A DNA stretch of 64,000 nucleotides. It comes from Thermodesulfobacteriota bacterium. GTDB lineage: Bacteria > Desulfobacterota > Desulfomonilia > UBA1062. A model generated the notes under the pieces. The model saw only the letters and a program-made list of their open reading frames with translations, was not told the DNA's origin and did no database searches. The DNA is taken from NCBI GenBank assembly GCA_036825155.1, contig DAISYU010000001.1:17770-81769 (forward strand). Direction: 5' to 3'. How positions within the stretch are numbered: position 1 is the first letter of the stretch; each line of letters begins with the position of its first letter. A program made the translations under genes and the position numbers. This document shows, in pieces, positions 23,416 to 64,000 of the stretch.

Positions 23416-23457
23416 GGAGGTCAGCTGTATTATTCTGATACCTTGAGTAAACACATA

Positions 23458-23485
23458 AAGGCTGCCTGCCGTAACCGGCAGCCTT
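23458..23485 (-). terminator. Intercistronic hairpin between wtpA and wtpB
   Basis: AAGGCTGCC-N10-GGCAGCCTT followed by a short T-run on the - strand; a typical stabiliser/attenuator after a binding-protein gene. Confidence 0.55.
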
Positions 23486-23519
23486 CATGTGTGAAACACT
23501 AAGGTATTGAGCGCCGTGT

Positions 23520-24512
23520 TTAGTTCTTCACCTCAACCAGGGCCTTGAGCGCATCCGGAAGGATGTTTTTCATATCCTCCGAGGGTACCCGTGCCGGAAT
23601 GAACGGCGGCTGCCCCATATCCTTGAGGATCTTGAGCCCGCCCTGCGGGTCCAGCAGATACTGCATGAACGCAATGGCTGCTTCCTGATTGGGGGCGTCT
23701 TTTACGAGTGTCACGCCATAGGTGACGGACTTGCCCTTGATCTCCATGAATGTTCCCGGTTCCTTCCCGGTCACCTTGACCACGGCCTCGGAATAAAGGT
23801 CATCGTACTGGTAGTTGCCCAGGTTGACCTCATCAGGAAGCACGACATATTTCAGCCCATGCTGCACGGCAACCGAGAGGTACTCCCAGGCATAGTCCAT
23901 ATTTCCCGTCTGGAGCAGGGAGATCAGTTCCACTGATTTGGGCCTGACATTTTCCTTGGGACGGTTTGCAATCAACTTGTCGTAAAGTCCCGGGATCTTG
24001 TAGTGCTTTTCCGCGAGCTGCAGGACCATGAGGGAACGGTAGCCGCAGGGATCGAGGTTCGGTTCCGAATGACCCCATACCACGCCCTTTCTCTGCAGGA
24101 TTTCATACCAGTTGTCGGCATTCACCTCTGAGGCGAACTTGCTCTTGTCGGTGTAGCAGAGCACGAGCTGGTTGGTGGCAAAGCGAATATTGAAGGATGC
24201 ATAGTCCGGGATCAGGAGCTTGTCGATAACCTTGTAGTCTGCCGATGCCATGATATCACAGGGTTTCTTCACATCAGTGATCTTGCGGGCACATTTCTGG
24301 GACCCTGCTGCCTCGCGAAGCACGTCAACACCCGGGTATTTTGTCTCAAAGGCCTTTTCCATGGCCTCGAACGGAACCGAGAGGCTTCCTGCGTGGAAGA
24401 TGATGAGCTTGCCCTGAGGTGCCGCAGAACTTGTACCCGGTAGTGACAGCATCATGATGGTCAGCATGGCCAGACAGAGAGACTGTAGAATCAACACGTT
24501 TTTTTTCATCAT
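23520..24512 (-). CDS. wtpA: Tungstate ABC transporter substrate-binding protein (WtpA-type)
   Basis: Signal peptide; [23 protein letters not shown] and YAWEY carry the Asp/Glu metal ligands of WtpA-class binders; 330 aa. Confidence 0.9.
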
Positions 24513-48958: not shown

Positions 48959-50020
48959 ATGACGGATATATATGAGCAATTGCGCAGGCGCCTCGATGAA
49001 ATGGCCACGGGATATCCCGCGACCGAAAGCGGTGTGGAGATCAGGCTGCTGAAACAGCTGTTCCGTCCGGAAGATGCCCGGATGTTCCTCTCAATGAGTA
49101 CATACGCACAGACTGCCCGTGAAATTGCGGAGAGGACAGGGACAGATACGGACACCACTGCAGCAGTGCTTGAGGATATGGCGCTTCGAGGGCTTGTATT
49201 CAGAGAACGCACAGAGGGGATGAGCTACTACCGGGCGATCCCTTTTATTGTCGGGATCTATGAGTTTCAGATCAATGCCCTCGATGGGACGATGCTCAAG
49301 AACGTTTCCGAGTACTATCTGTCGGGATTGGGTCAGTCGTTCCACTCCCTGAAGACCCCGCACCTGCGCACGATCCCTATCAACAGGGACCTGGTGTCGA
49401 AGTGGCCTGTTGCAACCTATGACGATGCAGTCTCGATTATTGAGAGAAAAGACCGCATTGCCGTGGCCCCGTGTCTCTGCCGCAAGGCGGTCCGTATGTA
49501 CTCTAAAGGCTGTGACCACCCACTGGAGACCTGTCTTCAGTTTGATACGTTCGCGGATTACTATGTGGACAACTCCATGGCACGCTACATTACCAAGGAT
49601 GAGGCTCGTGCCATCCTTGCCCGCAGCGAGAAAGAGGGCCTGGTTATCCAGACTGCGAATTCCAAAGAGGTGGAGGCCATGTGTTCCTGCTGTTCCTGCT
49701 GCTGCGGCATGCTTATCTCGCTCAAGCTGTTCCCTGCGCCGGCCCGCGAAGTGAAGAGCAACTATGTCTGCACCTCGAATGAAGGTTCGTGCACCCTCTG
49801 CGGTATGTGCGTCAAGCGCTGCCCCGTTGATGCCGTTGAACTTCTTGAAGAACATGCACATACCCATGAAGAACGCTGCATAGGGTGCGGGCTGTGCGTG
49901 AGCACCTGTCCTGCCGAAGCACGAACCCTTACAAGGAAGCCTGAAGAGAAGATCTATACCCCTGCGGATACGTTTTTCGACACCTTTGAACAGATGTGCG
50001 AGGAGCGCGGCAGGGATTAA
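48959..50020 (+). CDS. 4Fe-4S binding protein with N-terminal winged-helix-like region
   Basis: PCLCRK, CSCCSCCC, and two CxxCxxCxxxCP motifs at the C-terminus; 353 aa. Confidence 0.88.
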   Translation: MTDIYEQLRRRLDEMATGYPATESGVEIRLLKQLFRPEDARMFLSMSTYAQTAREIAERTGTDTDTTAAVLEDMALRGLVFRERTEGMSYYRAIPFIVGIYEFQINALDGTMLKNVSEYYLSGLGQSFHSLKTPHLRTIPINRDLVSKWPVATYDDAVSIIERKDRIAVAPCLCRKAVRMYSKGCDHPLETCLQFDTFADYYVDNSMARYITKDEARAILARSEKEGLVIQTANSKEVEAMCSCCSCCCGMLISLKLFPAPAREVKSNYVCTSNEGSCTLCGMCVKRCPVDAVELLEEHAHTHEERCIGCGLCVSTCPAEARTLTRKPEEKIYTPADTFFDTFEQMCEERGRD

Positions 50021-50026
50021 GGCTTA

Positions 50027-50971
50027 CTACGGATGCTTGCTCTCACTGTTTTTCTGCCGGTAGCGGATCAGCCGGAAGAACGAGCCCCAGAACCAGTGGG
50101 TCAGTTTGTGCAGGTGTATGCCGATACCTTGCCCGAAGATGGTCCAGCCCAGTTTGCGATGCCACTTGATGAACAGACCGAAATGGCTGCTGGAGACCTT
50201 GCCCCCTCTGATGTACCAGCATTTGGGTGCGAGCTTCGGTTTCCACTTGCCGGTGATGACCTTCAAGACTTCCAGGGCGGCCAGGCTTACCGCCATCCAT
50301 TCCACAGTACAGATGAGGGCAAGGGGCCGTTTTCCGAGGAAATAATCCCAGAACCAGTCTACACGCCAGTCTCCCGCGGTGATGAAGTTGTATTGCGCAC
50401 ACCGGTACTCCCGGGAATGCACGACCTGTTTCAGCCCGTTGTAGTTGAGCGTGGGCACGCCGAATACATCCTCGATGGTCGGGGTTTCCGGTGTAAAGAC
50501 GCTGATCCATCCGATGGATCCGGACGGCAGGCACAGTACGGCAGGTTTCTCAAGTTTCCTGGCAGCCCGGAAGATGAGGACGCTGTATGAAAGGTCATCC
50601 ACTGCAGGGATCACCACGTCGCATTGCTCGATCAGTTGATCCAGGTCTTCTTCAGTGGGGAGCGTGTGGAACGAGGTAACCTGTGCAGCGGGGTTGATTT
50701 TCAGAATTGTCTCGGACATCAGGGTGATCTTGTTTTCGCCTATCGTATCTGTGAAGCATCCGATCTGACGGTTCATGTCACCGGCCTCGTATATGCCCTG
50801 GCCGGCAAGGATAAAATGTTCAACCCCGCACCGAGACAGCAGTAATGCAAGCGTCTCGCCGGAACCGCTGTCGCCGATGATCAGCACCTTAACAGACCTG
50901 ATACGTTCCTGATCATCCTCGGTGAAGACCCCGTAGTTTCGTTCGAACAGGGCCTTGTACGTCAGGTCCAT
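50027..50971 (-). CDS. ThiF/HesA/MoeB (E1-like) family protein, degenerate nucleotide-binding motifs
   Basis: RNYGVFTE..Q.RI..KVLIIG start; P-loop reads GDSGSG; EAGDMNRQ replaces DxxxxSNxNRQ; Trp-rich C-terminal extension. Confidence 0.85.
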   Translation of the reverse strand: MDLTYKALFERNYGVFTEDDQERIRSVKVLIIGDSGSGETLALLLSRCGVEHFILAGQGIYEAGDMNRQIGCFTDTIGENKITLMSETILKINPAAQVTSFHTLPTEEDLDQLIEQCDVVIPAVDDLSYSVLIFRAARKLEKPAVLCLPSGSIGWISVFTPETPTIEDVFGVPTLNYNGLKQVVHSREYRCAQYNFITAGDWRVDWFWDYFLGKRPLALICTVEWMAVSLAALEVLKVITGKWKPKLAPKCWYIRGGKVSSSHFGLFIKWHRKLGWTIFGQGIGIHLHKLTHWFWGSFFRLIRYRQKNSESKHP

Positions 50972-50993
50972 TGTCCCCCCTCAGGGAATTTCA

Positions 50994-51959
50994 TCAAGGC
51001 TTACTCCCCCTGCGCTCGCGAAAATGCCCCCATGCAATGAACAGTTTCCACCAGATCTCCTGAGCCCACTCCAGTACGGGTGACAACCTGGTCTGAAACA
51101 GGCGCCACATGATCTTCCGCTGCCAGACCAGCAGTGTCTGCAGGTTCAGACCGCCTATGCGGTTGATCCTGATGGCGTTCGCGGTGATATTCCAGTAGCG
51201 AGGCGATACTACCGGCTTCCATTTGCCGCTGAGCACCTTGAGCACCTCGAGCGAGCCGAGCGACGAACACAGCCACACAGAGGGGGCTATATGGGTGGGG
51301 GAAGAATCCTCCTCGATAAAGGAGCGGTAGTAGTCGATCCTCCAGTCGGCAAACGGAACATAGAAGTACGTGCCGAACTTGTATTTTCTGATGGCGAGCA
51401 TTTCCTTGAGCTCTTCATACGATCCCAGTGTGGGTACTCCCTCGATGTCCTCCACCGGTGGACTGTCCGGCATGAGTATGCAGACATTCGCCCAGGTGCC
51501 GGATGGGAATATCAACAGGGCAGGTACCCCCAGTCTCTGGGCCTCCCTGAATACGATTACACTGAATGCAAGATCGTCGGCAGCGGGGAATACCACGTCA
51601 ACCCTGGGAATCAGCTCGGAAATCCTCTCATGGTTCAAGAGCTCGGGATATACCTCCACCTGGGCATCAGGATTGATCTTCATGATCTGCTCTCGTATGA
51701 CCTCGGCCTTGTTTCTGCCCAGCGTGTCGGTAAAACAGGCAATCTGCCGGTTCATGTTGGAGAATCCGTAGTTGTCGAATTCCACCAGAATGAAATTACT
51801 CACCCCTGAACGGGCAAGAACAATAGCGACAGTACCGCCAATGCCGCCGCACCCGATAATGAGGACTTTCGAGGTACGGATACGGTCCTGTTCTTTCTCG
51901 GTGAAGACTCCGTAGTTTCTCAGGAAAAGCTCTTGGTAGCCAGGTAGTATATTCATCAA
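50994..51959 (-). CDS. ThiF/HesA/MoeB (E1-like) adenylyltransferase family protein
   Basis: KVLIIGCGGIG, EFDNYGFSNMNRQ, GRNKAE, AADD; no CxxC zinc sites; Trp-rich C-terminal extension. Confidence 0.9.
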   Translation of the reverse strand: MMNILPGYQELFLRNYGVFTEKEQDRIRTSKVLIIGCGGIGGTVAIVLARSGVSNFILVEFDNYGFSNMNRQIACFTDTLGRNKAEVIREQIMKINPDAQVEVYPELLNHERISELIPRVDVVFPAADDLAFSVIVFREAQRLGVPALLIFPSGTWANVCILMPDSPPVEDIEGVPTLGSYEELKEMLAIRKYKFGTYFYVPFADWRIDYYRSFIEEDSSPTHIAPSVWLCSSLGSLEVLKVLSGKWKPVVSPRYWNITANAIRINRIGGLNLQTLLVWQRKIMWRLFQTRLSPVLEWAQEIWWKLFIAWGHFRERRGSKP

Positions 51960-52603
51960 TCCTTTCTTCTATGATGCAATCTGACAGGCAACAGCCCATG
52001 CACAAGTGTAGACAGGAGACATGCTGCTCCCGCACCGATTGCAACGTAGTATGGTTGCAGAAAATACATGAAGACATCGACGTCCACAGTGTAGTGTATA
52101 ATGCCAAGGCCGACAACCGGCATATCCACCAGGGTGCATGCAAACAGAAGCGATCCGAAGAATCCCGCTGCATAGGCAAGCATGAACAAACCGCTCCACA
52201 TGATGAAGAGCCGCCCCTTTTTCCCGGGCATGGTGCTGCCCCAGAAGGCAAGGAACAGGTATCCGAAAAGAACCACCGGGAGCAGTATGACCGCTATGAT
52301 CGGGGTTTCGATAACATACTTGAAGCCTTCAGGCGGAAGATTGTGGATCAGGATGAAGGGATACGCATCGATGGTATACATCCTGTCGTAGACATCTCCG
52401 CGCCACCAGGGGAAGAAGATGGTGCTGAAAAAGACGATTCCGGCAGCCAGGCCGAAAATATTGTAGATGGTGAATTCACGGAAGTGGCCGGTAAACGTCT
52501 TGAGTATATGCCTCATACCCTGGGGATTTGATTCATCCTGCGCCAGACTCCGGCGCGTTGCATCATCGATGAAGATGTTTTCCAGGATCTTAAGAAATTT
52601 CAT
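51956..52603 (-). CDS. Hypothetical membrane protein (about 4 TM)
   Basis: 215 aa; stop overlaps the ThiF start (ATGA). Confidence 0.8.
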   Translation of the reverse strand: MKFLKILENIFIDDATRRSLAQDESNPQGMRHILKTFTGHFREFTIYNIFGLAAGIVFFSTIFFPWWRGDVYDRMYTIDAYPFILIHNLPPEGFKYVIETPIIAVILLPVVLFGYLFLAFWGSTMPGKKGRLFIMWSGLFMLAYAAGFFGSLLFACTLVDMPVVGLGIIHYTVDVDVFMYFLQPYYVAIGAGAACLLSTLVHGLLPVRLHHRRKD

Positions 52604-52695: not shown

Positions 52696-54030
52696 TCAGC
52701 CGGCCAGCACGGCGTCTACTGCATGTGCGAGCTTCTCCTTCGCGGCTGCGATGACATCAGCATCGGACCAGAGAAAGGCCAGCAGGTCCTCTGCCCGGAT
52801 ATGCGCAAAACACAGCAGCAGGATCGGGCAGATTCCGAGCGTCATGGCCAGGGCCGTCTTCTTCTCCCAGGTGTCATATTCATCCGCTGAGCCTGTGGGC
52901 ACAATGCGAGGTATGCCGGATCCGAACATGCGGTAGAACTCAAGTGAGACAGCTCCGGTATCTGAGCTGTTCGCAGTATCCACTGAAGCTGAATGGTTCG
53001 AGGCAAAGAGATCTATGTGCGAGCAGGCTTCCTCGGTAGGAGTGGTCTGGTCCAGCCCTGCAGCTGCGGCAGACGGGTCGATCCCGTTTTCGATACAGTG
53101 TTTCAGCAGCACAACGGCATCAGCCGGGCGCTTCTTTGACAATGCGGCGAATCCTTCATGGTCCAGCAGGAAGACCCCCTGTTTCTTTCCTGCTTTAAAA
53201 AGACTGTGCGAACCAGCCTGAGGGAACTCGAGATAACTCATGCAGGGAAACGGACAATGGTAGCATGCATGGGCCTTCTTGAAATGTTTCTTGATCAGTT
53301 GAGAAGCGGCCTCGCCGGAACCCATGCTTTTCTGCACCACAAACCGGGGGGTGCTGTACTGGTTCTTCAGTGCCGAAGCCATGGGGCCGCTCATTTCTAT
53401 GGCGTGTTCAGGGAAGCGGATCCCTCCGGCAGCCTTCAATGCAATGGCCCGTATATTCTTCTGCCCGACCGCGCAGCCCAGAGAAGCCTTGTCCAGACTG
53501 CCCCAGAGCCCGGTGGAGAGGCAGGCATGTGCAGAGGAGTTATCCGCGGCATTGCCCGTGAGCAGGACGATCTCGGGACAGTTCCTGCCTCGGGCCAGCA
53601 GCAAGTCTTCCCGCTTGGAAAGATCTCCTGCGAGGGTATCGCCTGGAGTGATCCTGATGGTATTGTCTATCAGCTCGATGATCACGGGGGTCTCGCTGCG
53701 GCCTGTGATCACAAGGAAATCAATCCCCGAGAATTTCAGCTGTGGCCCCGTATTGAGCATGAAGGGGACATGCATCACCTTGTTCCCGTTCGAGTAAAAG
53801 CTTGCCGTCATCAGGCACGATGCCGGGGCAAAACTTCCGGTGAGAGGTCCGGTGCCGAATACCAGAGGGGCGTTGTCTGCATAGCGTTCGAGGAGCACGG
53901 TGCTGAGGCGGACCCCTCCTGTATGCTCGGCGAAGAGTTCAGAGGGAAGATCTATGGTCTCCACTGATGAATTCTCGAGATTCACCAGCGCCATCTTTGC
54001 ATTATAAAAAGGGGTCATGAGTACGTCCAT
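52696..54030 (-). CDS. Degenerate aldehyde:ferredoxin oxidoreductase (AOR) family paralogue
   Basis: AOR N-domain traits (LVFGTGPLTG, GPQLKFSGIDFLVITG, KNIRAI), ACYHCPFPC and LGIC; lacks EYET and DPR. Start at ATG 54030 or coupled ATG 54018. Confidence 0.8.
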   Translation of the reverse strand: MDVLMTPFYNAKMALVNLENSSVETIDLPSELFAEHTGGVRLSTVLLERYADNAPLVFGTGPLTGSFAPASCLMTASFYSNGNKVMHVPFMLNTGPQLKFSGIDFLVITGRSETPVIIELIDNTIRITPGDTLAGDLSKREDLLLARGRNCPEIVLLTGNAADNSSAHACLSTGLWGSLDKASLGCAVGQKNIRAIALKAAGGIRFPEHAIEMSGPMASALKNQYSTPRFVVQKSMGSGEAASQLIKKHFKKAHACYHCPFPCMSYLEFPQAGSHSLFKAGKKQGVFLLDHEGFAALSKKRPADAVVLLKHCIENGIDPSAAAAGLDQTTPTEEACSHIDLFASNHSASVDTANSSDTGAVSLEFYRMFGSGIPRIVPTGSADEYDTWEKKTALAMTLGICPILLLCFAHIRAEDLLAFLWSDADVIAAAKEKLAHAVDAVLAG

Positions 54031-55313
54031 GCTTTGACTTCTCCTGGAATGGTTTTCTGCCAGCGAAAGCGGATCTTTGCGGAGCTGTACGGGCAGGTGT
54101 CCACACAACGCATACACAAGATACACTCGTCCATGGGGATCTTGGGCGCGGTCCCCTCTCTGAGGGCTTCACGGTCGATGATGCCCATGGGGCAGATGTC
54201 GGCGCACTGCATACAGGAAAACTTCTTGCACTGCTTGGCCCCGATCACGATCTTGATCAGGCCTATCTTGGCCGCCAGAGCCAGTACGGCACCCACCGGA
54301 CAGAAGTAGCGGCACCATGACCTGCGCTGTCCCAGTTCAAGGCTTGCGATGGCAGGCACAATGGCAAGTTCTGCTCCCTGCAGCACCCCCGATACCCCGT
54401 ACGACCTGCAGATGCTTCCGATGGGGCATACCGTGCAGAAGGGCTGGAATCCCAGGCCGGCAGCCCCGCCGATCGCTCCGCCAAGGATCCCGTACTTGAT
54501 CATGCGGCTTTTCAGAAATTTCGGCAGGCCGAACTTGGGGACGACAGAGCCCACCAGGTCGAGGAAGAACCCGAAGGGACATACCCATCCGCAGAAGGCC
54601 CTGCCAAGAAGGATAGTCAGTACGATGAGCACGAGGGCAGCACCGGCGCTGGCGAACACGATATGCTTGGTTGCGGCGATATTCTGCAGGGTCCCGGTGG
54701 GACAGGGCAGAGAGACCACCCCTGCCGTGAAATAACAGAACGTGCCCACGAGGACCACCACCAGGAGCAGGAATGAGAGCAGCTGTACCGGCCAGCGCAG
54801 ATATTTGATCCATCCTACGGCCTTACCCCGATAGAAGTGCAGTGCCCCTTCAGGACAATGTTTGACGCACAGGGGGTCACCCTCGCACAGGTCGCATTTT
54901 CTGATCTTGCCGGTCACCGGTTCCACCATCGGGGCCGATTCAGGACAGGCAAGGGTGCAGATCCCGCATTCCACACAGAACAGGCGCCTGATGCGCACGA
55001 TTCCTTCATCGTCCTTGTCGATCGCGCGGGTAGGGCAGGCTTCCAGGCAGAGGGGTTCTCTGCAGTGCAGACACAGGGCCGCAAAGTTCTTGCCTTCCTC
55101 TTCGTTGCGCAGGACCTTTATGCTTGACGACGCCGGCGCCACTTTGTCCACATTCCGGTTGGAACAGACCATCTCGCAGGTCGAACACCCGGTACATTTT
55201 GAGGGATTGAATACAATGACCGGCGGATGTCTGGGCAGTTTCTTCTTGGCAGGCAACGGTCTTAAGTCCTTGATATCTATATATTCAACTTGTTTCTGGG
55301 CAGCTTCGGGCAT
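54015..55313 (-). CDS. Fusion of a 4x[4Fe-4S] ferredoxin (DmsB/CooF-like) and a NapH/MauN-like membrane polyferredoxin
   Basis: CTGCSTCEMVC, CLHCREPLCLEACP, CVECGICTLACP, CDLCEGDPLCVKHCP; then TM helices with CGWVCPFG, CTVCPIG, CRYFCPVG, and two C-terminal clusters. Confidence 0.88.
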   Translation of the reverse strand: MPEAAQKQVEYIDIKDLRPLPAKKKLPRHPPVIVFNPSKCTGCSTCEMVCSNRNVDKVAPASSSIKVLRNEEEGKNFAALCLHCREPLCLEACPTRAIDKDDEGIVRIRRLFCVECGICTLACPESAPMVEPVTGKIRKCDLCEGDPLCVKHCPEGALHFYRGKAVGWIKYLRWPVQLLSFLLLVVVLVGTFCYFTAGVVSLPCPTGTLQNIAATKHIVFASAGAALVLIVLTILLGRAFCGWVCPFGFFLDLVGSVVPKFGLPKFLKSRMIKYGILGGAIGGAAGLGFQPFCTVCPIGSICRSYGVSGVLQGAELAIVPAIASLELGQRRSWCRYFCPVGAVLALAAKIGLIKIVIGAKQCKKFSCMQCADICPMGIIDREALREGTAPKIPMDECILCMRCVDTCPYSSAKIRFRWQKTIPGEVKAWTYS

Positions 55314-55330: not shown

Positions 55331-55786
55331 TTACGCATTCCTCAGCAGATATACTTTACGCCTGCAGGCGGGACACATTTCAAGGTATCCCTTGGGTTCA
55401 TCCTTGAGTCGCTCGGTGATAAAGTCCATGACGTGCAGTGCAGCGAAGAGTTCACCGCAGCAGGTGCAGGTGCGGATATCCTTGACCGTTCCCTGCTGGA
55501 TGGCCAGTTGTCTGAGTCCTTTTATGAGATCGCGGTCACTCACCCCTGCAGGGCATACGTCGGTGCCGGCATTGCACTCGGTGCAGTACCAGATGTATTC
55601 GTCGGCAAGGATATCCTCTCCCATCATGACCTTCTTGATCACCCCGCGCGGTGACATCTCGATGGAAAAATTCGGGTACATCTCTGCCATGGGGCACACT
55701 GCCACGCAGCGGCCGCACTCCACACAGCTGTGCGCACCGGAGGCAGTCATGATATCTCTAATCTCTTTTGCACTCTTCATCTTCAT
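55331..55786 (-). CDS. HdrC-like 4Fe-4S protein with C-terminal CxxC...CxxC
   Basis: CVECGRCVAVCP, CTECNAGTDVCP, CTCC...CPAC; ATG 55786 overlaps the fdhA stop (ATGA). Confidence 0.85.
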   Translation of the reverse strand: MKMKSAKEIRDIMTASGAHSCVECGRCVAVCPMAEMYPNFSIEMSPRGVIKKVMMGEDILADEYIWYCTECNAGTDVCPAGVSDRDLIKGLRQLAIQQGTVKDIRTCTCCGELFAALHVMDFITERLKDEPKGYLEMCPACRRKVYLLRNA

Positions 55787-57813
55787 TCCTTCTCCATACG
55801 AGCAGCACATGCCTTGAATTCCGGTATCTTCGAGATCGGATCGAGTTCCTCGATGGTCAGTGCGTTGGCCGGTGCCTCTCTGAAGTGGAACGGTGCAAAG
55901 ATCGACCCTTTCCTGACCCGGGAGGTGATCTTCGCATTCGTGCTGATGGATCCCCTGCGTGTACTCACCCTGATGGCGTCACCGTCTCTGATACCCAATG
56001 AATGTGCATCCGCAGGACTGATCTCCACAAAGGGCTTGTCCACCTCTCGGTGAAGGAAATGCGATCGCCTGGTCATTGTGCCGGTATGATAGTGAGAGAA
56101 CATACGGCCGGTAATGAGCGTATACGGATACGTTTCGTCTGGCATTTCTTTGGGCGGCGTATAGCCCGGGACAACAAAGAGTCCCTTTCCGCGTGAGAAT
56201 CTGCCTTCATGGAGAAAGCGGGTACCGGGATGTGTGTCTTCCGGACAGGGCCATTGCAGACCGGCGCTTCCCAGTCTGTCGAAATGCACACCACCCATAA
56301 TCGGGGTGAGTGACGCGACCTCATCCATTACCTCGCCGGGGTCGGCATATGGGTAATCAAGTCCCAGCGCCTTTCCCATCATGCACAGGATGGTGAAGTC
56401 GTCCCTGGCGTCTCCCGGTGGTTCGACGGCCTTGCGGAGCAGCTGGATCCTCCGCTCGGTATTGGTAAAGGTGCCGGTCTTCTCCGCGTAACATGCACCC
56501 GGCAGCACCAGGTCGGCGAGTTTGGCGGTCTCGGTCAGGAAGATATCCTGCACGATCAGGAAATCGAGTTTGTGCAGGGAGTCGATCACATGACTCTGGT
56601 TCGGATCGGACAAAACAGGATTCTCCGCCATAATGTACAGTGCGCGGATCTTCTTTCCGGCCGAGCCAATGATCTCCGTGACAGTCATGCCGGGGGTAGG
56701 TGAGAGTTCCCTGCCCCAGGCATCCTCGAACTTCCTGAGGATATTCGCATCGGCAACGGTCTGGTACCCGGGGTAGACATTGGGAAGCGCCCCGAGGTCG
56801 CACGCCCCCTGCACATTGTTCTGCCCCCTCAAGGGGCAGATACCCGAGTGCGGTTTGCCGACATGTCCGCACAGCATGGCAAGATTGCATATGGCAAATA
56901 CGTTGGCAGTGCCGCAGGCATGCTGGGTGATTCCCATACAGAATACAATGGATGCTTCCTGCGCGCGGGAATATATCTCTGAAACCCGCGCGATCTCTTC
57001 GGCTGCAATCCCTGATTCATCACTGGCCTCCTCGACGCTCCACCCTGAAAGGTATGCATCCAGCGCATCAAAGGCCTCGGTCCTCTCATTGATGAAATCA
57101 CGAGCCTCCAGGCCCTGGTCGAGAATGTACCGCATCATGCCGTTTATCAGCGGGATGTCGGTGCCGGAGTTGATCTGGAGATGGATGTCGGCGTTGGCAG
57201 CCACCTCGGTTCTCCTGGGATCCACCACGATCAGTGTCGCCCCGTGATCTTTGGCCTTGTAGATCTCGCCCATGATGATGGGGTGGGTTTCCGCAGCGTT
57301 GGAACCGAAGATGATGATACACTCAGCCCCGGTGAAATCGCTGATGGAGTTTGTCATGGCACCGCTGCCCAGGGCCTGCGCCATGGCAGCTGCCGTGGGA
57401 CCGTGACAGAGCCGTGCACAGTGGTCGACATTGTTGGTCTTGAACCCGGCTCTGATCAGTTTCTGGAACAGGTAATTCTCCTCATTGGTGCACTTTGCGG
57501 AGCTCAGTCCGGCAACGGCGTCCGGACCGTAGCTCTCGGCTGCTTCCTTGAGCTTCTTCGCAGCGAGATCGATTGCCTCCTCCCACGATATTTCCTGAAA
57601 CTCTCCGTTCTTCTTGAGCAGGGGCCGGGTGAGCCTGTCCGGATGATGGATAAATTCGTGGGCTGCCCAGCCTTTGATGCACAAGGTACCTTTGGCTACG
57701 GGATGTTTCCTGTCAGGCAGGGTCCTGATGGCCTTGCCGTCTTCAACCTGCAGGATAAACCCGCACCCGGTGCCGCAATAAGGACAGATCGTCTTTACAA
57801 AATCACGTTTCAT
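55783..57813 (-). CDS. fdhA: Cytoplasmic formate dehydrogenase alpha subunit (FdhF-type, Cys-ligated Mo/W-bis-PGD)
   Basis: TICPYCGTGC, SSAKCTNEENY, HCARLCHGPT (Cys, not Sec), PLRGQNNVQGACD, HYHTGTMTRR; no Tat signal. Confidence 0.95.
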   Translation of the reverse strand: MKRDFVKTICPYCGTGCGFILQVEDGKAIRTLPDRKHPVAKGTLCIKGWAAHEFIHHPDRLTRPLLKKNGEFQEISWEEAIDLAAKKLKEAAESYGPDAVAGLSSAKCTNEENYLFQKLIRAGFKTNNVDHCARLCHGPTAAAMAQALGSGAMTNSISDFTGAECIIIFGSNAAETHPIIMGEIYKAKDHGATLIVVDPRRTEVAANADIHLQINSGTDIPLINGMMRYILDQGLEARDFINERTEAFDALDAYLSGWSVEEASDESGIAAEEIARVSEIYSRAQEASIVFCMGITQHACGTANVFAICNLAMLCGHVGKPHSGICPLRGQNNVQGACDLGALPNVYPGYQTVADANILRKFEDAWGRELSPTPGMTVTEIIGSAGKKIRALYIMAENPVLSDPNQSHVIDSLHKLDFLIVQDIFLTETAKLADLVLPGACYAEKTGTFTNTERRIQLLRKAVEPPGDARDDFTILCMMGKALGLDYPYADPGEVMDEVASLTPIMGGVHFDRLGSAGLQWPCPEDTHPGTRFLHEGRFSRGKGLFVVPGYTPPKEMPDETYPYTLITGRMFSHYHTGTMTRRSHFLHREVDKPFVEISPADAHSLGIRDGDAIRVSTRRGSISTNAKITSRVRKGSIFAPFHFREAPANALTIEELDPISKIPEFKACAARMEKE

Positions 57814-58657
57814 GGTTCACCTTCAATGAATCCAGCCACCCGGGCTCCATGAGGGGCGGGCACGGCTCGATAGTCAGATCGCTGAGCACCGGAGAGAGCC
57901 GCTCCAAATCTGTTCCGGCTTCATATCCGTAATTGTTTGCCAGGGTTTCACGCATGGCAACCTGCAGAAGCATCAGGGGAATATTGACCGGGCAGGCATC
58001 CGTACATCCGCCGCAGGCAACGCACGTATCAGACAGGTGAAATGCCCTGATAAGGTGGTAGGACACCATATCCGCAGGGATCTCGCCGCGTCTGACCCAC
58101 AGATCGTCTTCCAGTTTACAGGGTTCACATACACAGATCGGACACGAATTTCTGCATCCGTAGCATTTGATACACCTGCTGAGTTCGGCCGCCCAGTGCT
58201 GCATCCGTGTGCCTGGATCGTCCGAAAGAAACATTCTTGCCCGTTCATCTTCGCGGGGATCAAATCCCTCTGACTTCTCACCCAGGGCGATCGAGGCAGG
58301 GTAGGGTTTTGTACACAGGCATATTCGAGCCTGCTCGGCACTGCAGGCCAGTCCTATGACATGCAGGCGTGCAGGGTCGAACTGGTTGCGCTTGGAAAGT
58401 TCATTCAAGGCCCGTTCATCACAGCCCCGGCAGATGATGCCCAGCCGGTAGTCTTGTGGGGACGAGCGCAGGATGTTCATGGCCAGCTTGGCAAGCAGCC
58501 ATTTGGGCTCAAGTTCCAGCATACCGGTCTCCGCGGCAACCTCGAAGACATACGGATAGGGTTCGTCTTCCACCCGTGCCAGAGCCAGCACCCCGTCAAC
58601 CAGGCCTTCTTCGAGTGCGTTTTTGGCCTTGAGCCGTGCATCTTCTACTAGACTCAC
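57803..58657 (-). CDS. FdhB/FlxC-like 4Fe-4S subunit
   Basis: CRGCDERA, IGLAC, CIKCYGCRNSCP, CVACGGCTDACP; GTGA-coupled to mvhD. Confidence 0.85.
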   Translation of the reverse strand: MSLVEDARLKAKNALEEGLVDGVLALARVEDEPYPYVFEVAAETGMLELEPKWLLAKLAMNILRSSPQDYRLGIICRGCDERALNELSKRNQFDPARLHVIGLACSAEQARICLCTKPYPASIALGEKSEGFDPREDERARMFLSDDPGTRMQHWAAELSRCIKCYGCRNSCPICVCEPCKLEDDLWVRRGEIPADMVSYHLIRAFHLSDTCVACGGCTDACPVNIPLMLLQVAMRETLANNYGYEAGTDLERLSPVLSDLTIEPCPPLMEPGWLDSLKVNHET

Positions 58658-59142
58658 GTATCACCTCTTCTGTAATCGTTCATATTTGACCGTGACCATG
58701 CCTGAACCGGCGGCAGATCCTGAAGCCTGCGATAAAACTCCCCGATGACATCTGCAAACTGATGGTGTTCATGGGCGGTGCCGAAGCTGGTGAAGAGGCG
58801 TCGGGAATCAATCCCCACCGTATCCAGCAGCGGTCTCAAGAGTTCAAGCCTTTTGGCTGCACGGTGGTTGGCGTTATTGTAGCGGCAGCCGCCCAGGTGG
58901 CAGCCCATCACCGCTACACCGTCTATTCCCGAGGAAAAAGCCCTGATGACCGCGTCAGCCTCGACACGTGAGGCACATTCCACCGGGATGACCCGGAAAT
59001 TCACGGGAAGCTGTACCTTGTTCTTTCCTGCCGCATCTGCACCGATAAGCGCGCACCACTTACAGGCAAATACCACTACCTTTGGTGCTGCGTTGTGTCG
59101 GGTGCTCTCGGCATGATCACTCAGCAGTATCTCTTGTGTCAT
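58654..59142 (-). CDS. mvhD: MvhD/FlxD-like [2Fe-2S] subunit
   Basis: FACKWC...GADAAG, VECASRV, GCHLGGCRY. Confidence 0.92.
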   Translation of the reverse strand: MTQEILLSDHAESTRHNAAPKVVVFACKWCALIGADAAGKNKVQLPVNFRVIPVECASRVEADAVIRAFSSGIDGVAVMGCHLGGCRYNNANHRAAKRLELLRPLLDTVGIDSRRLFTSFGTAHEHHQFADVIGEFYRRLQDLPPVQAWSRSNMNDYRRGDT

Positions 59143-59155
59143 AGCGCACCTTCTC

Positions 59156-60862
59156 TCAACTAAAAGCAGCTTTCAGCATCTCTCCGATGAGGAGAGCGTT
59201 TTGTTCCGGCAGCTGGATCGAACCGTTGGGACAGACCGAAACGCAGCTCCCGCAACCGGTACAGCGCATCTGACTGACTGTGCTCTTGTATGCTCCCTGA
59301 TCCGCCTCCAGGCTGCAGGCATCATAGGGGCAGATGGCCACGCAGTTTCCGCACCCGGTACATGCCTGCCGGTCCACCAGGGCCAGGGAAAATTTACGTT
59401 CCTTAAACTGGCTGATTTGTGTGGCCGTGAGCTGATCAGTGTTCAGCAGGGCAAAGGCCTTCATTGCGGCCGCTTCACCCTGCAGGATCGCTGTGCGGGC
59501 CAGCACCGGCCACCTGGCGGACCCGCAGACCAGCACACCGTCTTTGGTAGTCTCCAGGGGATGCATCAGAGAGCGCACCTCGTAGAAACCATGTATATCA
59601 CGATTGAGGTCGAACAGTTCAGCCACTCTGGCGGCATCGTCATGCGGGATCAGCGGAGAGCTGAGCACCACCAGTTCGGCATCAATTCGCCGTTCTCTGC
59701 CGGTGATGACATCATAAACCCTGATTTCCTCCACCTGTTCGGCGCCGAGGATCCCCGGGGGTGTGTCCTGATCGTACCGGACGAACCGGACGCCCGCCTC
59801 CATTGCCTTGCGGTAATAGTCCTCCAGAACACTGCCGGGGCACATGATATCCCGGTGGAGTATCGTCACCTCAGCATCCGGGTTTTCCTCCAGGAGCTGT
59901 ATTGCCTGCTTCAGGGACACCGGGCAGCAGATAGCCGAACAGTACGGTCTGTCGGCATCACGTACGCCCACGCACTGGATGAAGACAGCGGAGGTGACCT
60001 TCATGCCGGGGCCCTTGAAACTCCGTTCGAGCTCGATGCCGGTGATAACCCCCTTGAGCTCCTTGTACCGGTATAACGATCCCGGCAGGTTGACCCGTGC
60101 ACCGGTTGCTATGATGACCGCCCCGACATTGATGCTCTTGACATCACTACCGGATGTGAACTCGACGGTGAAATCGCCTGCAGACCCTCGCACAGCGGAA
60201 ATTCGACTGCCGGGATAGTAGCGAACCAGGGGGGAGTTGCCCACTGTGTACAGGAAAGCCTCCACATGTTGTGGGGTTCCGTCGGTTTCAGGGGCAATCT
60301 TCTTGATCAGGTTCAGCAGGCCACCCGGGGTCTTGGCCCGGTCCAGGAGGTGTACCGTAATCCCCAGCTTCACCAGGGAAGCGGCAGCGGAGATCCCTGC
60401 AGGTCCTGCCCCGATAACGAGCACTTCCTGCTTCGGTTCGATCGTCAGATCTTCAGAATAGTTACGCTGCACCAGTGCGGCGATACCCATATTTATGAGA
60501 TCACCGGCTTTTTTTGTGGCTGAGGCGGGGTCATCACGGTGTATCCAGGCACATCCCTCGCGGAGATCCACCAGTTCTATATGTTTCGGATCAATGCCTC
60601 TTTTCTGAAGCCCGGTGATTATCGCATCACCCCTGGCCAGGAAGGAACAGGCCCCCAGCAGAACCCTGGATTCCGGTGAAAGGGGGATGCGCTTGGCCAG
60701 CTCATCGATATTCTCTTCAAGACAGAGAGACTTTACCTTTTCACACGATACGATCCGGGGATGATGCTCGAGTCCCTTGCGGATTGATTCAAGATCGACA
60801 ACATCGGAGATCTCACCGTAACACTCGCAGAGAAAGCACCTGGTTTGTTTGTTGTCTTCCAC
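59156..60862 (-). CDS. HdrA-like FAD/Fe-S flavoprotein (QmoB-like architecture without fused MvhD)
   Basis: N-terminal HdrA domain (CFLCEC, GACS, LREGCAWIH), GAGPAG, FIQCVG...CSAICC, two C-terminal clusters; GTG start overlaps the upstream TAG. Confidence 0.9.
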   Translation of the reverse strand: MEDNKQTRCFLCECYGEISDVVDLESIRKGLEHHPRIVSCEKVKSLCLEENIDELAKRIPLSPESRVLLGACSFLARGDAIITGLQKRGIDPKHIELVDLREGCAWIHRDDPASATKKAGDLINMGIAALVQRNYSEDLTIEPKQEVLVIGAGPAGISAAASLVKLGITVHLLDRAKTPGGLLNLIKKIAPETDGTPQHVEAFLYTVGNSPLVRYYPGSRISAVRGSAGDFTVEFTSGSDVKSINVGAVIIATGARVNLPGSLYRYKELKGVITGIELERSFKGPGMKVTSAVFIQCVGVRDADRPYCSAICCPVSLKQAIQLLEENPDAEVTILHRDIMCPGSVLEDYYRKAMEAGVRFVRYDQDTPPGILGAEQVEEIRVYDVITGRERRIDAELVVLSSPLIPHDDAARVAELFDLNRDIHGFYEVRSLMHPLETTKDGVLVCGSARWPVLARTAILQGEAAAMKAFALLNTDQLTATQISQFKERKFSLALVDRQACTGCGNCVAICPYDACSLEADQGAYKSTVSQMRCTGCGSCVSVCPNGSIQLPEQNALLIGEMLKAAFS

Positions 60863-62085
60863 TATTGTTCCTCCCCCACATGCACCCGAAGCGCAGCCGA
60901 TGATGCCTGGACAACAGATGCCTCGACATCCATTGGTTCACGGCAGAATCCGCAGGACTTTATAGTTGGACTGATACCGCTGAGCAGCCCCTCGGTATCG
61001 AGTATGGGACTGTACCCGGAGTCCTTTGATTTTGCCAGGGACGGCTGCAGTGCCCCGTTGAGCACCACCATGTCGAACTTCCTGATCTGCCGTGACTGGG
61101 TTATGGTATTCTCATATTTTACGGCGATCCCGTCTTCGTCAGGCATGGGATAAATAAGTCCCGGTCTTCCCCTGAGGAGCTCAATGGACGAACCGCCTAT
61201 CTCCCTTAGATAGTACTCATAGTAGTGTCTGCCCTCGGCACGCATGTCAGTGAAGAAGATGACGCATTGCACCTGCGGATTGCGCCGCTTTACCCACTGG
61301 GCCTGTTTGAGGGCATGCATGCAGCAGACCGCCGAACAGTAGGGAAAGAGTCTCAGGTCCCTGGCTCCGGCGCATTGGATGAATGCGATGCTTGCAGGCT
61401 GCTTGTTGTCTTGCTTTTTAACAACGGTTCCCCGGTTGAGGCCGGACTCGGCAGTCCATTCTTCGAACTGCAGGGAACTCATGATATCGGGATGGGTCCC
61501 GTAGCCGTATTCCTCGAGGGGTGAGATGTCGTAGTCCTGAAATCCGGTGGCCCAGATCACGTCCCGGGCAAGGATCTCGCTTGAAGCGGCTTTTCTGTTA
61601 ATATCAATGGCGGAGGTGGGACATACATCCACACACTTACCACAGAGGGTACATTTTTCTCTATAAATATAGTATGATGGCGGGTATGCATGTGCACCCA
61701 GGGTGCTGATGGCATCGACGCCGCATGCGGGCACACACCTTCCACATGAGATACACCGGTTCTCGTCGATATACCGGGGGTGTTCATCCACGACCACCTT
61801 CAAGGCCCCGTCGGTCTTGGTGATGGTGTTGATCTCGGCGCAGGTATGTACGGTGATCAGAGGGTTCAGCATACAGTTGCGTACTTCGGTCCAGAGAGGA
61901 CAGAAGGCACAGTGATCCGTGGGATAGAGCTTGTCAAGGGCTGATACCTGTCCACCCAGGGCAGGGCCTTTCTCCACCAGATGCACGGCGGTCCCTGCTC
62001 TTGCCAGATCAAGGGATGCCGTGATCCCGGCGACTCCACCGCCGATGACAATGACTGGTTTCATGTGAGGGGGCTTGGCAGACAT
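60862..62085 (-). CDS. HdrA-like FAD/Fe-S flavoprotein (short form with inserted ferredoxin domain)
   Basis: GGGVAG, LDKLYPTDHCAFCP, two inserted CxxCxxCxxxC, FIQCAG...CSAVCC; 407 aa. Confidence 0.9.
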   Translation of the reverse strand: MSAKPPHMKPVIVIGGGVAGITASLDLARAGTAVHLVEKGPALGGQVSALDKLYPTDHCAFCPLWTEVRNCMLNPLITVHTCAEINTITKTDGALKVVVDEHPRYIDENRCISCGRCVPACGVDAISTLGAHAYPPSYYIYREKCTLCGKCVDVCPTSAIDINRKAASSEILARDVIWATGFQDYDISPLEEYGYGTHPDIMSSLQFEEWTAESGLNRGTVVKKQDNKQPASIAFIQCAGARDLRLFPYCSAVCCMHALKQAQWVKRRNPQVQCVIFFTDMRAEGRHYYEYYLREIGGSSIELLRGRPGLIYPMPDEDGIAVKYENTITQSRQIRKFDMVVLNGALQPSLAKSKDSGYSPILDTEGLLSGISPTIKSCGFCREPMDVEASVVQASSAALRVHVGEEQ

Positions 62086-62096
62086 GGGTGCTCCTC

Positions 62097-62786
62097 TTAC
62101 TTATTGATCAGGCCATAGTGACTGGCCAGCTTCCTGATCCTGCTTCCCAGCCACTCCCCGAAACTCGGCGGCGGGAAATCATAGGGGCCGACATTATCCT
62201 CTTGTTTAAGAGCAAGGATCTTTTCGGAAGGTTGAAAGCGTTTGACCTTGTCGTAATATACCACGATCGATTTTGGATCGGTGGGGCAGCGGGTAAAACA
62301 TGCGCCGCAGCCGATGCACTTGTCCTCGATGACTACGGGATTCTTCCGGTCCTCCAGTTCAATAGCGTCATACTTGCATGCCTTGTAGCAGTTACGGCAA
62401 CGACGCTTGTTGGTCCAGGCGAGACAGGTGTCCCGGTTGATGACCGCGTTGCCGATGTCAAGGTCCTCTTTGGCAACCTTCTTGATCGCACCGGTGGGGC
62501 AGGTCCTGATGCATTCCATGCACAGGATGCACTTGCGCCAGTCCAGTACAGGGGTGCCGAGATTGGGGATGCCGTCAAAGATCGAGGCCGGAGACAGAGC
62601 GTCTGCAGGGCAGACGTCAATGCAGCGGTAGCAGCGGGTACAGTGTTTGAGGAACTCCGCTTCCACGAGTGAAGCAGGAGGCCGGGGCAGCGCCTTTGCC
62701 CCGCTGACCTTGAACACGGTAAAGACCGCACCAGAGGCCACGCCACTGATCAGAATTTTCATAAAGTTCCTGCGCGAGTTCTCCAT
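62097..62786 (-). CDS. NapG/MauM-like ferredoxin with twin-arginine signal
   Basis: SRRNFMK, LPRPPAS...EFLKHCTRCYRC, four Cys clusters. Confidence 0.85.
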   Translation of the reverse strand: MENSRRNFMKILISGVASGAVFTVFKVSGAKALPRPPASLVEAEFLKHCTRCYRCIDVCPADALSPASIFDGIPNLGTPVLDWRKCILCMECIRTCPTGAIKKVAKEDLDIGNAVINRDTCLAWTNKRRCRNCYKACKYDAIELEDRKNPVVIEDKCIGCGACFTRCPTDPKSIVVYYDKVKRFQPSEKILALKQEDNVGPYDFPPPSFGEWLGSRIRKLASHYGLINK

Positions 62787-62900: not shown

Positions 62901-64000
62901 TTAGGCCTTTCTTGCTGCCTGCATATCTTTGATTGTGTAATCCAGACCGAGATTCTTGAGGGTATCGTCGGTTGGAATACCATTGTCATCCCAGCCGAAG
63001 TAGTCGAAGACATCTTTCTGCATCTTCTTGACTTCCTCTTCCGGGAAAACAGCATCCTTCTTCGGGCCCTCTGGAAGTTTCTCGTTCTTGAGCCGCCAGG
63101 GCAGTGTATCGTCCTTGGCACGGACGCCTTCACGCACCTGGAAGCAGCGCTCCAGCGTCATGATGCGTTTGGACGTGGTCCAGTACTCTTCGTCGGTCAT
63201 GTTCCAGCCGCACAGCGGGTTGAGCATTGCGATGAAGACCCCTGGTGTTTCCTTGCCCCACGGGTAGCCACCCACGAATGAGCACATGGTGAGCGAGTTG
63301 ATCATGGTCCAGCGTGCCAGTGTTTCCGCGGAGGTTCCCTCATGGTGGTCGCCGCCGCAGGTACCCAGGGCATAGCTGAATGCACGTGCCTTGTCACCAC
63401 GAGGATCGTGCGCTGCGACTTCCTTGCCTTTGACATGCACGGCCCACTTATAGGAATCCTTGCCGATCTCCTCGGACATCTTCTTGACGCCCTTGGCCAG
63501 CAGTTTTCCTGCACCTTCCTGATAAGCGATCTTCCTGATCATCTCGACAGAGGCATCGCCATTGCCGAACTCCAGGTTGATGCCGTCCAGGTCCTTGGGT
63601 GTCAGAACGCCGCGCTGGACACACTCCATGGCGAAGGCCAGACAGCCGCCGGTGGAGATGGAGTCGAGCCCCAGGGCATCGGTCAGCTCGATGCAGGCCA
63701 TCATGTCGTCAAAGTTGGAGAATCCGAGGTTGGAACCCAGCAGTCCGCCGGTTTCATATTCAGGCCCCTCAGCGATCAGGCCGTCATATTTACCGCCGCG
63801 GATGACACCGGTTTTCATGCAGTGTACCGGGCAGTGGTTACAGGCGGTATGCTTTTTCCAGAATTTCCTGTTGGCCTCTTCTGCGCCGAGTTCAATGATG
63901 TCCGGCCACCAGGTGGTCTGGAAGTTCTTGGTGATGAGAGAACCGGTGCCGTAATGCTTAAGCTCCAGCAGTCCACCGGTACCCCAGCGCTTGATGCCCT
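62901..64000 (-). CDS. aor: Tungsten aldehyde:ferredoxin oxidoreductase (AOR family), 5'-truncated by the window edge
   Basis: Frame open to the window end (GIKRWGTG...); TACNHCPVHC, GPEYET, GLDSIS, HDPR, GGDH, LTMC, YFGWDDNGIP. Confidence 0.92.
   Translation of the reverse strand, partial: GIKRWGTGGLLELKHYGTGSLITKNFQTTWWPDIIELGAEEANRKFWKKHTACNHCPVHCMKTGVIRGGKYDGLIAEGPEYETGGLLGSNLGFSNFDDMMACIELTDALGLDSISTGGCLAFAMECVQRGVLTPKDLDGINLEFGNGDASVEMIRKIAYQEGAGKLLAKGVKKMSEEIGKDSYKWAVHVKGKEVAAHDPRGDKARAFSYALGTCGGDHHEGTSAETLARWTMINSLTMCSFVGGYPWGKETPGVFIAMLNPLCGWNMTDEEYWTTSKRIMTLERCFQVREGVRAKDDTLPWRLKNEKLPEGPKKDAVFPEEEVKKMQKDVFDYFGWDDNGIPTDDTLKNLGLDYTIKDMQAARKA

Follow-up and report, generated by a model that had tools for sequence, protein, structure and literature searches.

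A conserved pair of intact and degenerate ThiF paralogues, accompanied by a membrane protein and tungsten-enzyme genes, is a candidate one-site E1-like heterodimer

A stretch of 64,000 nucleotides from a Thermodesulfobacteriota bacterium (GenBank assembly GCA_036825155.1, contig DAISYU010000001.1, positions 17,770 to 81,769; hereafter the window) encodes two adjacent E1-like adenylyltransferase paralogues of the ThiF family, ThiF-A and ThiF-B, next to a protein with four transmembrane helices (4-TM), Mem215. The two ThiF proteins are paralogues, the degeneracy of ThiF-B is conserved, and the genes are inherited together, fused in some species and linked to Mem215 and to genes of tungsten enzymes of the aldehyde oxidoreductase (AOR) family. 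We tentatively favour the reading that A and B would form a membrane-linked heterodimer with one catalytic site that matures AOR-type tungsten enzymes, its likely reaction being the activation of a sulfur carrier. To our knowledge, the asymmetric exceptions among E1-like enzymes, which are otherwise regarded as symmetric homodimers, come from eukaryotes and some anti-phage systems; a conserved, repeatedly fused active/degenerate pair in ordinary anaerobic metabolism would offer an independent and tractable example of asymmetric E1 evolution. The uncharacterised three-gene module (4-TM protein, ThiF-A, ThiF-B) travels with AOR tungsten enzymes in syntrophic Desulfobacterota, and a two-gene form does so in Chloroflexi. 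Little is understood of how tungsten enzymes mature, and a dedicated, membrane-linked accessory enzyme using ATP would help the expression and study of these complexes. The module comprises the following features.

51956..52603, minus strand: Mem215, an uncharacterised 4-TM protein of 215 amino acids with a conserved PWW motif; its stop overlaps the ThiF-A start.
50994..51959, minus strand: ThiF-A, an E1-like adenylyltransferase paralogue of 321 amino acids with GCGGIG, LVEFD, SNMNRQ, K84 and PAADD; nucleotide site intact.
50972..50993, minus strand: the A-B spacer, 22 nucleotides from the stop of A to the ATG of B, holding the strong Shine-Dalgarno sequence GAGGGGGG.
50027..50971, minus strand: ThiF-B, a conserved degenerate paralogue of 314 amino acids with a Pfam ThiF match and a motif set of its own.

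ThiF-A and ThiF-B share 41% identity over 309 amino acids (BLASTP, E = 4e-85), far above chance, and are paralogues. Both match PF00899 ThiF (A, 136.6 bits, E 1e-39; B, 111.6 bits, E 4e-32; cut-off 28.1); the adenylation domain begins at about residue 8, and neither protein has a further Pfam domain. ThiF-A starts with TTG, with an ATG one codon downstream. The spacer carries a ribosome-binding site of its own, and B is translated separately in the window, whereas it is fused to A in some other genomes. ThiF-A carries GCGGIG and FDNYGFSNMNRQ, and in the ThiF alignment it keeps the Gly loop, the ribose-binding acid, SN..RQ, the Lys and the catalytic Asp; the roles of these ATP-site residues are those that we presume from the MoeB/ThiF literature and this alignment. 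ThiF-B carries GDSGSG and YEAGDMNRQ: the acid that closes Rossmann strand beta2 has become Gly, and GD stands before MNRQ in place of SN, while the N-terminal Arg, RQ, Lys and DD are retained. Cys residues in LCLPSG, YRCAQY and PKCWY are specific to the B family. The CxxC motif of a zinc site was found in neither ThiF-A nor ThiF-B, nor in the family consensus. The AlphaFold2 (AF2) model of ThiF-A (pLDDT 95, pTM 0.92) consists of one adenylation domain and two tail helices, and its best structural match is MoeB (1jw9_B; TM-score 0.85 on the target). A preliminary description of this DNA had reported a paralogue pair with the motifs GCGGIG and GDSGSG and without CxxC zinc sites, and both points hold for the two open reading frames (ORFs), which lie at the coordinates given there.

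Motif counts and rates for A and B were taken from 30 loci, from 30 species, that carry both genes, with the following counts.

G-loop: GCGGIG in A, 30/30; third Gly lost in B, 28/30.
Residue at the end of beta2: D or E in A, 30/30; Gly in B, 30/30.
Residue before MNRQ: N in A, 30/30; D in B, 30/30.

The equivalents of R14, R71/Q72, K84 and D128 are kept in both proteins. A database search with B returned 67 clusters at 50% identity or more and then dropped sharply to A-type proteins at 36-40%, followed by a third group of Chloroflexi proteins of about 300 amino acids (C-type). Consensus sequences drawn from 117 A, 65 B and 36 C proteins showed that each group conserves motifs of its own; A and C retain the canonical nucleotide site, and the B consensus has GD.G.GE, Gly at the position of the beta2-end acid and D for N before MNRQ. 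The conserved Cys residues of B (LCxPSG, yrCAQY and APrCW, at residues ~149, ~190 and ~252) are absent from A and from single-copy relatives, and the trio may bind a metal or cluster in place of the lost zinc motif. B changes only a little faster than A, with a mean pairwise identity of 57.7% versus 63.5% (r = 0.91 across species pairs). By neighbour joining, the B sequences form a monophyletic clade whose branching pattern matches that of the A clade. Its own conserved motifs, its near-A rate and the mirrored tree indicate that B is a functional protein under selection, and its substitutions suggest that it has very probably lost ATP binding.

The gene order is A then B in every pair locus, with tiny spacing or none, and in four species the two are fused in frame into a single ORF of ~640-690 codons.

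L030, 9941-12010; L034, 9380-11920; L035, 9638-11899; L036, 9965-11950; protein P0254: A-B fusions of at least ~640 amino acids, in which the A tail is followed by a linker of ~10-60 residues.

When 1.84 billion representative proteins were searched exhaustively with HMMER, the best match to A was a 640-amino-acid A-B fusion, with GCGGIG in its first half and GDSGTG in its second; with 39 representatives at E <= 1e-30 in this set, the close family is both small and taxonomically narrow. Taken together, the conserved losses in B, the invariant gene order, the matching trees and the in-frame fusions make it likely that A and B form an obligate heteromer, a pseudo-heterodimer with one site. The active/inactive heterodimer that the preliminary description had put forward thus gains strong comparative support, and the degenerate copy on which it depends proved to be conserved at full length, with its own motifs, in about 30 species. 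Single-copy relatives with intact sites also exist, namely the C-type proteins and A-like singles, and by analogy with MoeB these are presumably symmetric homodimers. In Dehalococcoidia, an intact copy is accompanied by a second, differently degenerate paralogue (GMFAGG, NRD), so active/inactive pairs may have arisen more than once in the family; in the neighbour-joining tree, the Dehalococcoidia copies form the sister group of the B clade, and one shared ancient duplication is a possible alternative. The A/B duplication itself is bacterial and independent of that in eukaryotic E1s.

Searches of Pfam, NCBIfam and PADLOC gave no hit to Mem215, and none of its 29 homologues has a name beyond 'hypothetical protein'. 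The AF2 model of Mem215 (pLDDT 81) combines four TM helices with an outer-side sheet of five strands. Structural matches were weak (claudin/TARP/DUOXA-like, TM-score 0.35-0.53), and we treat this similarity as one of topology, rather than homology. Proteins of the claudin/TARP/DUOXA type are scaffolding or auxiliary subunits and not enzymes. A Mem215 homologue lies directly upstream of the pair in ~20 of the 33 pair loci and directly downstream of the C-type ThiF in 21 of 26 Chloroflexi loci; Mem215 is therefore a conserved partner of the ThiF gene or genes. In addition, Mem215 co-occurs with Tat-signal (twin-arginine translocation) or NapH-type membrane Fe-S modules (counts 33/7/6/11, Fisher p = 0.001, uncorrected for phylogeny).

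The C-terminal tails of both ThiF proteins are rich in Trp and Arg: 6 W and 10 R/K in 56 residues of A, and 4 W and 9 R/K in 49 residues of B. In the AF2 model of ThiF-A the tail forms two confident helices (273-288 and 293-318), and the consensus analysis showed that tail sequences are conserved beyond shared composition. The possibility that the tails are transmembrane segments was rejected (maximum Kyte-Doolittle 19-mer only 0.56), as was exceptional amphipathicity, since their hydrophobic moment is moderate (0.46-0.57) and comparable to that of core helices. An amphipathic membrane-binding tail is plausible, and so is membrane association of A and B. Of the Trp/Arg-rich amphipathic tail noted earlier, the composition is borne out, and the amphipathic membrane character is plausible with a moment that is only moderate. 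The accompanying proposal of membrane association draws support from the conserved 4-TM protein adjoining the ThiF genes and none from the tails as membrane-spanning segments.

Genomic surroundings were compared in a scan that used one genome per species and yielded 80 loci (L numbers below). Pairs and A-like singles came from Syntrophales, Smithella, Desulfomonilia and Desulfatibacillaceae, and C-type genes from Anaerolineae and Dehalococcoidia. In ~21 of 33 pair loci, the distance from the pair to an AOR-family gene is at most 2.4 kb. The pair-linked AORs fall into at least three clades: proteins of ~605 amino acids in Hdr/Fdh-type clusters, proteins of 619-655 amino acids that often occur with iron alcohol dehydrogenase (Fe-ADH) and SCP2, and proteins with the N-domain only. 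An AOR gene stands directly upstream of the C-type ThiF in 21 of 26 Chloroflexi loci, where the order is a Tat-signal Fe-S subunit, a 677-amino-acid AOR, ThiF, the Mem homologue and more redox genes. These Chloroflexi AOR clusters also hold NuoE/F, a NuoG-NapH fusion and a Tat-signal protein resembling reductive dehalogenases. The association of the pair with a tungsten-enzyme operon, which had been proposed from the window, thus recurs among relatives, and the genes do not lie mostly in unrelated contexts.

Several neighbourhoods contain genes of cofactor or sulfur metabolism. In six Chloroflexi loci, L052, L053, L060, L062, L064 and L065 (for example L053, 18747-19877), a gene ~7-8 kb downstream of the ThiF gene encodes MoaA, recognised by its Radical_SAM and Mob_synth_C domains and ending in the GG that is usual for MoaA. 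MobB, DUF364 and Nitro_FeMo-Co genes are found downstream in L001. In L023 (5460-10936), an A-type ThiF without B comes right after Rrf2, a NifS-like cysteine desulfurase, NifU, O-acetylhomoserine sulfhydrylase (MetY) and cysteine synthase (CysK), a sulfur-trafficking operon typical of pathways with sulfur-carrier proteins.

MoeB and ThiF (PDB 1JW9 and 1ZUD) have the same fold and are the best structural matches (TM-score 0.80-0.86 on the target). However, they are homodimers with two active sites and two CxxC motifs for zinc, and their partner MoaD or ThiS is often encoded nearby, whereas A/B has one degenerate site, no zinc motif and no adjacent ubiquitin-like protein (Ubl). A and B further differ from them in an insertion in the crossover-loop region (from strand 156-162 to helix 225-244) and in the helical tail of ~50 residues. 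The best-scoring NCBIfam models were NF006077 (PRK08223, 'hypothetical protein') and NF011424/NF011425 (PRK14851/PRK14852); their match spans residues 8-261 of A including the crossover insertion, but these families are uncharacterised too, and with NF006077 scores of 134.5 bits for A and 103.2 for B against a cut-off of 266, the two proteins are non-members. ThiF-A scored 104.6 against NF006395 (cut-off 159) and 63.7 against the equivalog of TcdA, the tRNA ct6A dehydratase (cut-off 304). Eukaryotic E1s (SAE1-SAE2, NAE1-UBA3 and UBA1) likewise pair active and inactive adenylation domains that arose by duplication, but A-B fusions put the active domain first, whereas the order in UBA1 is inactive then active. 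The catalytic-Cys domain, ubiquitin-fold domain and E2 of the eukaryotic systems have no counterpart in A/B, whose proteins are 314-321 amino acids long and whose context is metabolic, with tungsten oxidoreductases. MccB, PaaA and AclA show comparable structural similarity and likewise lack a Ubl partner, but they have an N-terminal substrate clamp and a precursor peptide gene, neither of which A/B has. A defence function of the CBASS Cap2, Bil or 6A-MBL kind was considered and rejected: matches were partial, confined to the Rossmann region and at most 60 bits, no E2 was present and the context is metabolic.

ThiF/MoeB and ThiS/MoaD-like genes occur beside AOR/WOR genes with a presumed role in pyranopterin cofactor synthesis (PMC1779556; PMC13328260), and the role of WorX/ThiF next to WORs is only 'predicted' (PMC13328260). 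Clusters of WorX, which is ThiS-like, and thiF share with A/B a ThiF-family gene next to AOR-family tungsten-enzyme genes. They combine a ThiS/MoaD-like protein with a single short classical ThiF, as in L083, whereas the A/B module has no WorX, belongs to a long-tailed ThiF clade, and consists of an active/degenerate pair with a 4-TM protein; it resembles the WOR-linked WorX/ThiF in context only. We came across no earlier account of a ThiF pair with one active and one conserved degenerate member, of its fusions or of Mem215 as a partner, and a literature search on AOR with HdrA/MvhD in syntrophs yielded none of the module. ThiF-A and ThiF-B are thus members of the ThiF superfamily that fail the tests for canonical MoeB/ThiF, PRK08223, TcdA, MccB/PaaA, Cap2 and full eukaryotic E1s.

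A ubiquitin-like partner was sought among small GG-terminated ORFs in the window and 85 loci, and by phmmer with E. coli MoaD, E. coli ThiS and the MoaD-like ORF of L083 as seeds. No MoaD/ThiS-like ORF was found in the 64-kb window with these three seeds, and the only small GG-ended ORF there, 21803-22162, lies antisense inside an ABC ATPase gene; the earlier remark that no such small protein is visible in the window therefore stands. Among the loci, a ~100-amino-acid beta-grasp ORF in L015 (11930-12265, minus strand; complete metagenome-assembled chromosome CP070704.1) lies between the AOR gene and ThiF-B; it matches Pfam Ub-Mut7C (E 6e-9) and, weakly, ThiS, has no C-terminal GG, and is the sole ubiquitin-like ORF adjoining a pair. 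A conserved Chloroflexi protein ending in '...IGG' was considered as a substrate and rejected, as it is MoaA. No conserved small precursor ORF was found in the gene spacing, and no conserved C-terminal motif in neighbouring proteins.

In the mechanism that we favour, A and B would function only together, as an E1-like pseudo-heterodimer in which one site is catalytic. ThiF-A is predicted to bind ATP and adenylate a carboxylate. ThiF-B, its nucleotide binding lost, would be the structural half of the dimer; it would probably give its conserved N-terminal Arg in trans to the A site, like the inactive subunit of the SUMO and NEDD8 E1s, and probably also offer a partner-binding surface. The Trp/Arg-rich helical tails and Mem215 would hold the enzyme at the cytoplasmic face of the membrane, where A/B would assist or mature tungsten enzymes of the AOR family. 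Most likely, it would activate a sulfur carrier of the MoaD/ThiS type for the pyranopterin cofactor, with the carrier gene located elsewhere. We infer dimerisation, catalysis by A, membrane tethering and the identity of the substrate from the comparisons above. The role put forward in the preliminary description, in maturing the tungsten or molybdenum cofactor or modifying a subunit, would rest on analogy with the WorX/thiF precedent (PMC13328260; PMC1779556) and on a few neighbourhoods (MoaA, MobB, NifS-NifU-MetY-CysK). A cofactor role of this kind is preferred because MoeB is the best structural match, because the link extends across unrelated AOR clades, and because of MoaA, the L001 genes and the L023 operon.

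Several observations weigh against this proposal. The zinc site of the MoeB/ThiF type is absent from A and B, and ThiF-A scores far below the cut-offs of TIGR02355 moeB (75.3 vs 376.6) and TIGR02356 thiF (95.4 vs 275.3). No GG-ended or MoaD/ThiS-like ORF was found within 10 kb in ~60 family loci, with the exceptions of L083 and L015, and L083 has a classical AOR-MoaD-ThiF arrangement, yet with a distant, short ThiF. A-like singles occur in 15 loci (L037-L051) without Mem215, and an AOR lies within 10 kb only in L045. Some pair loci have the order AOR-SCP2-FeADH-SCP2-Mem-A-B, and the neighbourhood of AOR, SCP2 and Fe-ADH suggests lipidic acid or aldehyde metabolism. In Dehalococcoidia, the intact and degenerate copies flank MaoC-ACP-ketosynthase-ketoreductase genes, with a macrolide-type glycosyltransferase beyond the degenerate copy (L072, 4982-10981; L076, 8202-16534); both copies terminate in ...PFMWRH[IL]I, and in L076 they are closely preceded by genes for an XDH-family Mo enzyme and a Mem215 homologue. 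If Tat-type AORs are periplasmic, any direct action of A/B on them must precede export.

In a rather unlikely but serious alternative, A/B would adenylate a non-protein carboxylate at the membrane, such as a fatty or organic acid made or used by the neighbouring aldehyde oxidoreductases, for aldehyde/acid/alcohol metabolism or as an acyl-AMP for transfer or reduction. A non-Ubl substrate is kept in play by the relatives in ACP/ketosynthase/glycosyltransferase clusters, with the XDH-family enzyme and Mem homologue of L076 beside them, and by the general absence of a Ubl nearby; the Trp/Arg-rich tails with a membrane partner, the AOR-SCP2-FeADH-SCP2-Mem-A-B loci and the structural relatives MccB, PaaA and AclA, which adenylate non-Ubl substrates, point the same way, as do a fusion of aldehyde dehydrogenase and iron alcohol dehydrogenase (ALDH-FeADH) and CoA-transferase genes just past ThiF-B in the window. 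On the other hand, we know of no E1-like enzyme that activates free fatty or organic acids, a step normally carried out by ANL ligases. The link spans three AOR clades with differing partners, which a shared cofactor fits as well as shared chemistry; Chloroflexi AORs with Tat-signal partners would be across the membrane from ThiF; and the sulfur-trafficking context of L023 points to sulfur-carrier chemistry. In a related and likewise unlikely version, a Ubl-free bacterial E1-like enzyme with a claudin-like membrane tether would have independently re-invented the eukaryotic E1 design, as two separate proteins or one fused chain, and would adenylate a non-protein carboxylate, for example an acid handled by AOR or one that arises in pyranopterin/tungsten-cofactor processing. 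Ubl-free carboxylate adenylation, if true, would represent a currently unrecognised ATP-dependent step in tungsten-enzyme biology. It is less probable still that A/B modifies or assembles a subunit of the AOR/Hdr/Fdh complex, through MccB/PaaA-like chemistry on the carboxylate of a protein or peptide or through ATP-dependent assembly or quality control before Tat export, or is itself a largely structural subunit anchored by Mem215. Mem215, A and B do come last in a same-strand series of 13 or more structural genes, ThiF and Mem lie between AOR and further structural genes in Chloroflexi, Mem co-occurs with Tat/NapH-type modules, and the conservation of the tail sequences suggests specific protein contacts; but the neighbours provide no conserved small precursor ORF or C-terminal motif, the conserved IGG-ended protein is MoaA, A and B have no N-terminal peptide-clamp or RRE domain, and the pair stands without any AOR/Hdr/Fdh complex nearby in L009, L020 and L033.

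The two remaining explanations concern the identity of the proteins themselves. ThiF-A is very unlikely to be an ordinary housekeeping MoeB, ThiF or TcdA, serving molybdenum cofactor, thiamin or tRNA ct6A, with an incidental location: its generic ThiF domain match, the ThiF and MoeB structures as best solved matches and the sequence match to TcdA would fit this, but its scores are below all equivalog cut-offs (moeB, 75 vs 377; thiF, 95 vs 275; TcdA, 64 vs 304), it lacks the zinc site, and its family is small, taxonomically narrow and strongly linked to AOR. That A and B are independent homodimers and B a decaying, functionless duplicate seems hardly credible. The canonical nucleotide-binding residues are indeed gone from B, but B is full length in ~30 species with its own motifs and new Cys residues conserved, its identity is only ~6 points under that of A, its tree mirrors that of A, and in-frame fusions occur in several genomes.

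In the window, Mem215, A and B are the last of at least 13 consecutive genes on one strand, which overlap or are separated by short gaps, and no opposite-strand gene lies between the ThiF pair and the AOR-type genes. In transcription order the run reads AOR, 3x[4Fe-4S], FAD/Fe-S, HdrA-like, MvhD, Fe-S, FdhA-type, HdrC-like, polyferredoxin-NapH, AFOR_N-only, Mem215, A and B, the genes before the module being as follows.

62901..64000, minus strand: AOR-family (tungsten) large subunit; the gene continues past the window end.
62097..62786, minus strand: small Fe-S subunit (3x4Fe-4S) whose N-terminus resembles a Tat signal: SRRNFMK, followed by hydrophobic residues up to AKA.
60862-62085, minus strand: FAD/Fe-S protein.
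59156-60862, minus strand: HdrA-like flavoprotein.
58654-59142, minus strand: MvhD.
57803-58657, minus strand: Fe-S protein.
55783..57813, minus strand: FdhA-type (formate dehydrogenase alpha type) Mo/W-bisPGD subunit, Cys variant, DHCARLCHG.
55331..55810, minus strand: HdrC-like 2x[4Fe-4S] protein.
54015..55313, minus strand: polyferredoxin fused to a NapH-like membrane domain.
52696..54126, minus strand: AOR-like protein with AFOR_N only; CxxCxxxC (CYHCPFPC) retained, AFOR_C domains missing.

The AFOR_N-only protein seems to be a truncated form, not described before, of a tungsten-family enzyme. Its gene recurs after FdhA, HdrC-like and NapH-like genes in L003, L005, L014 and L017. Since its annotated GTG start overlaps the preceding gene by 111 nucleotides, the true start is probably near 54030. 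The Tat-like signal on the subunit encoded at 62097-62786 contrasts with the cytoplasmic-looking HdrA, MvhD and FdhA of the same operon, and Fe-S partners of Chloroflexi AORs likewise bear SRR[DE]FL motifs. The orthologue of FdhA in L001 (1-898) is split into ORFs of 135 and 525 amino acids, as would be expected for a selenocysteine variant encoded with TGA.

On the other side of the pair, a winged-helix (MarR/TrmB-like) protein with 2x[4Fe-4S] is encoded on the plus strand (48959-50020) and converges on ThiF-B with 6 nucleotides between the stops; in L039 and L040, its homologues immediately precede single ThiF genes of the A-like kind. Farther away, an ABC transporter (21596-24512, minus strand) consists of a periplasmic SBP_bac_11 binding protein, a permease and an ATPase with a TOBE domain, an architecture that fits molybdate or tungstate uptake and would agree with the many Mo/W enzymes in the window.

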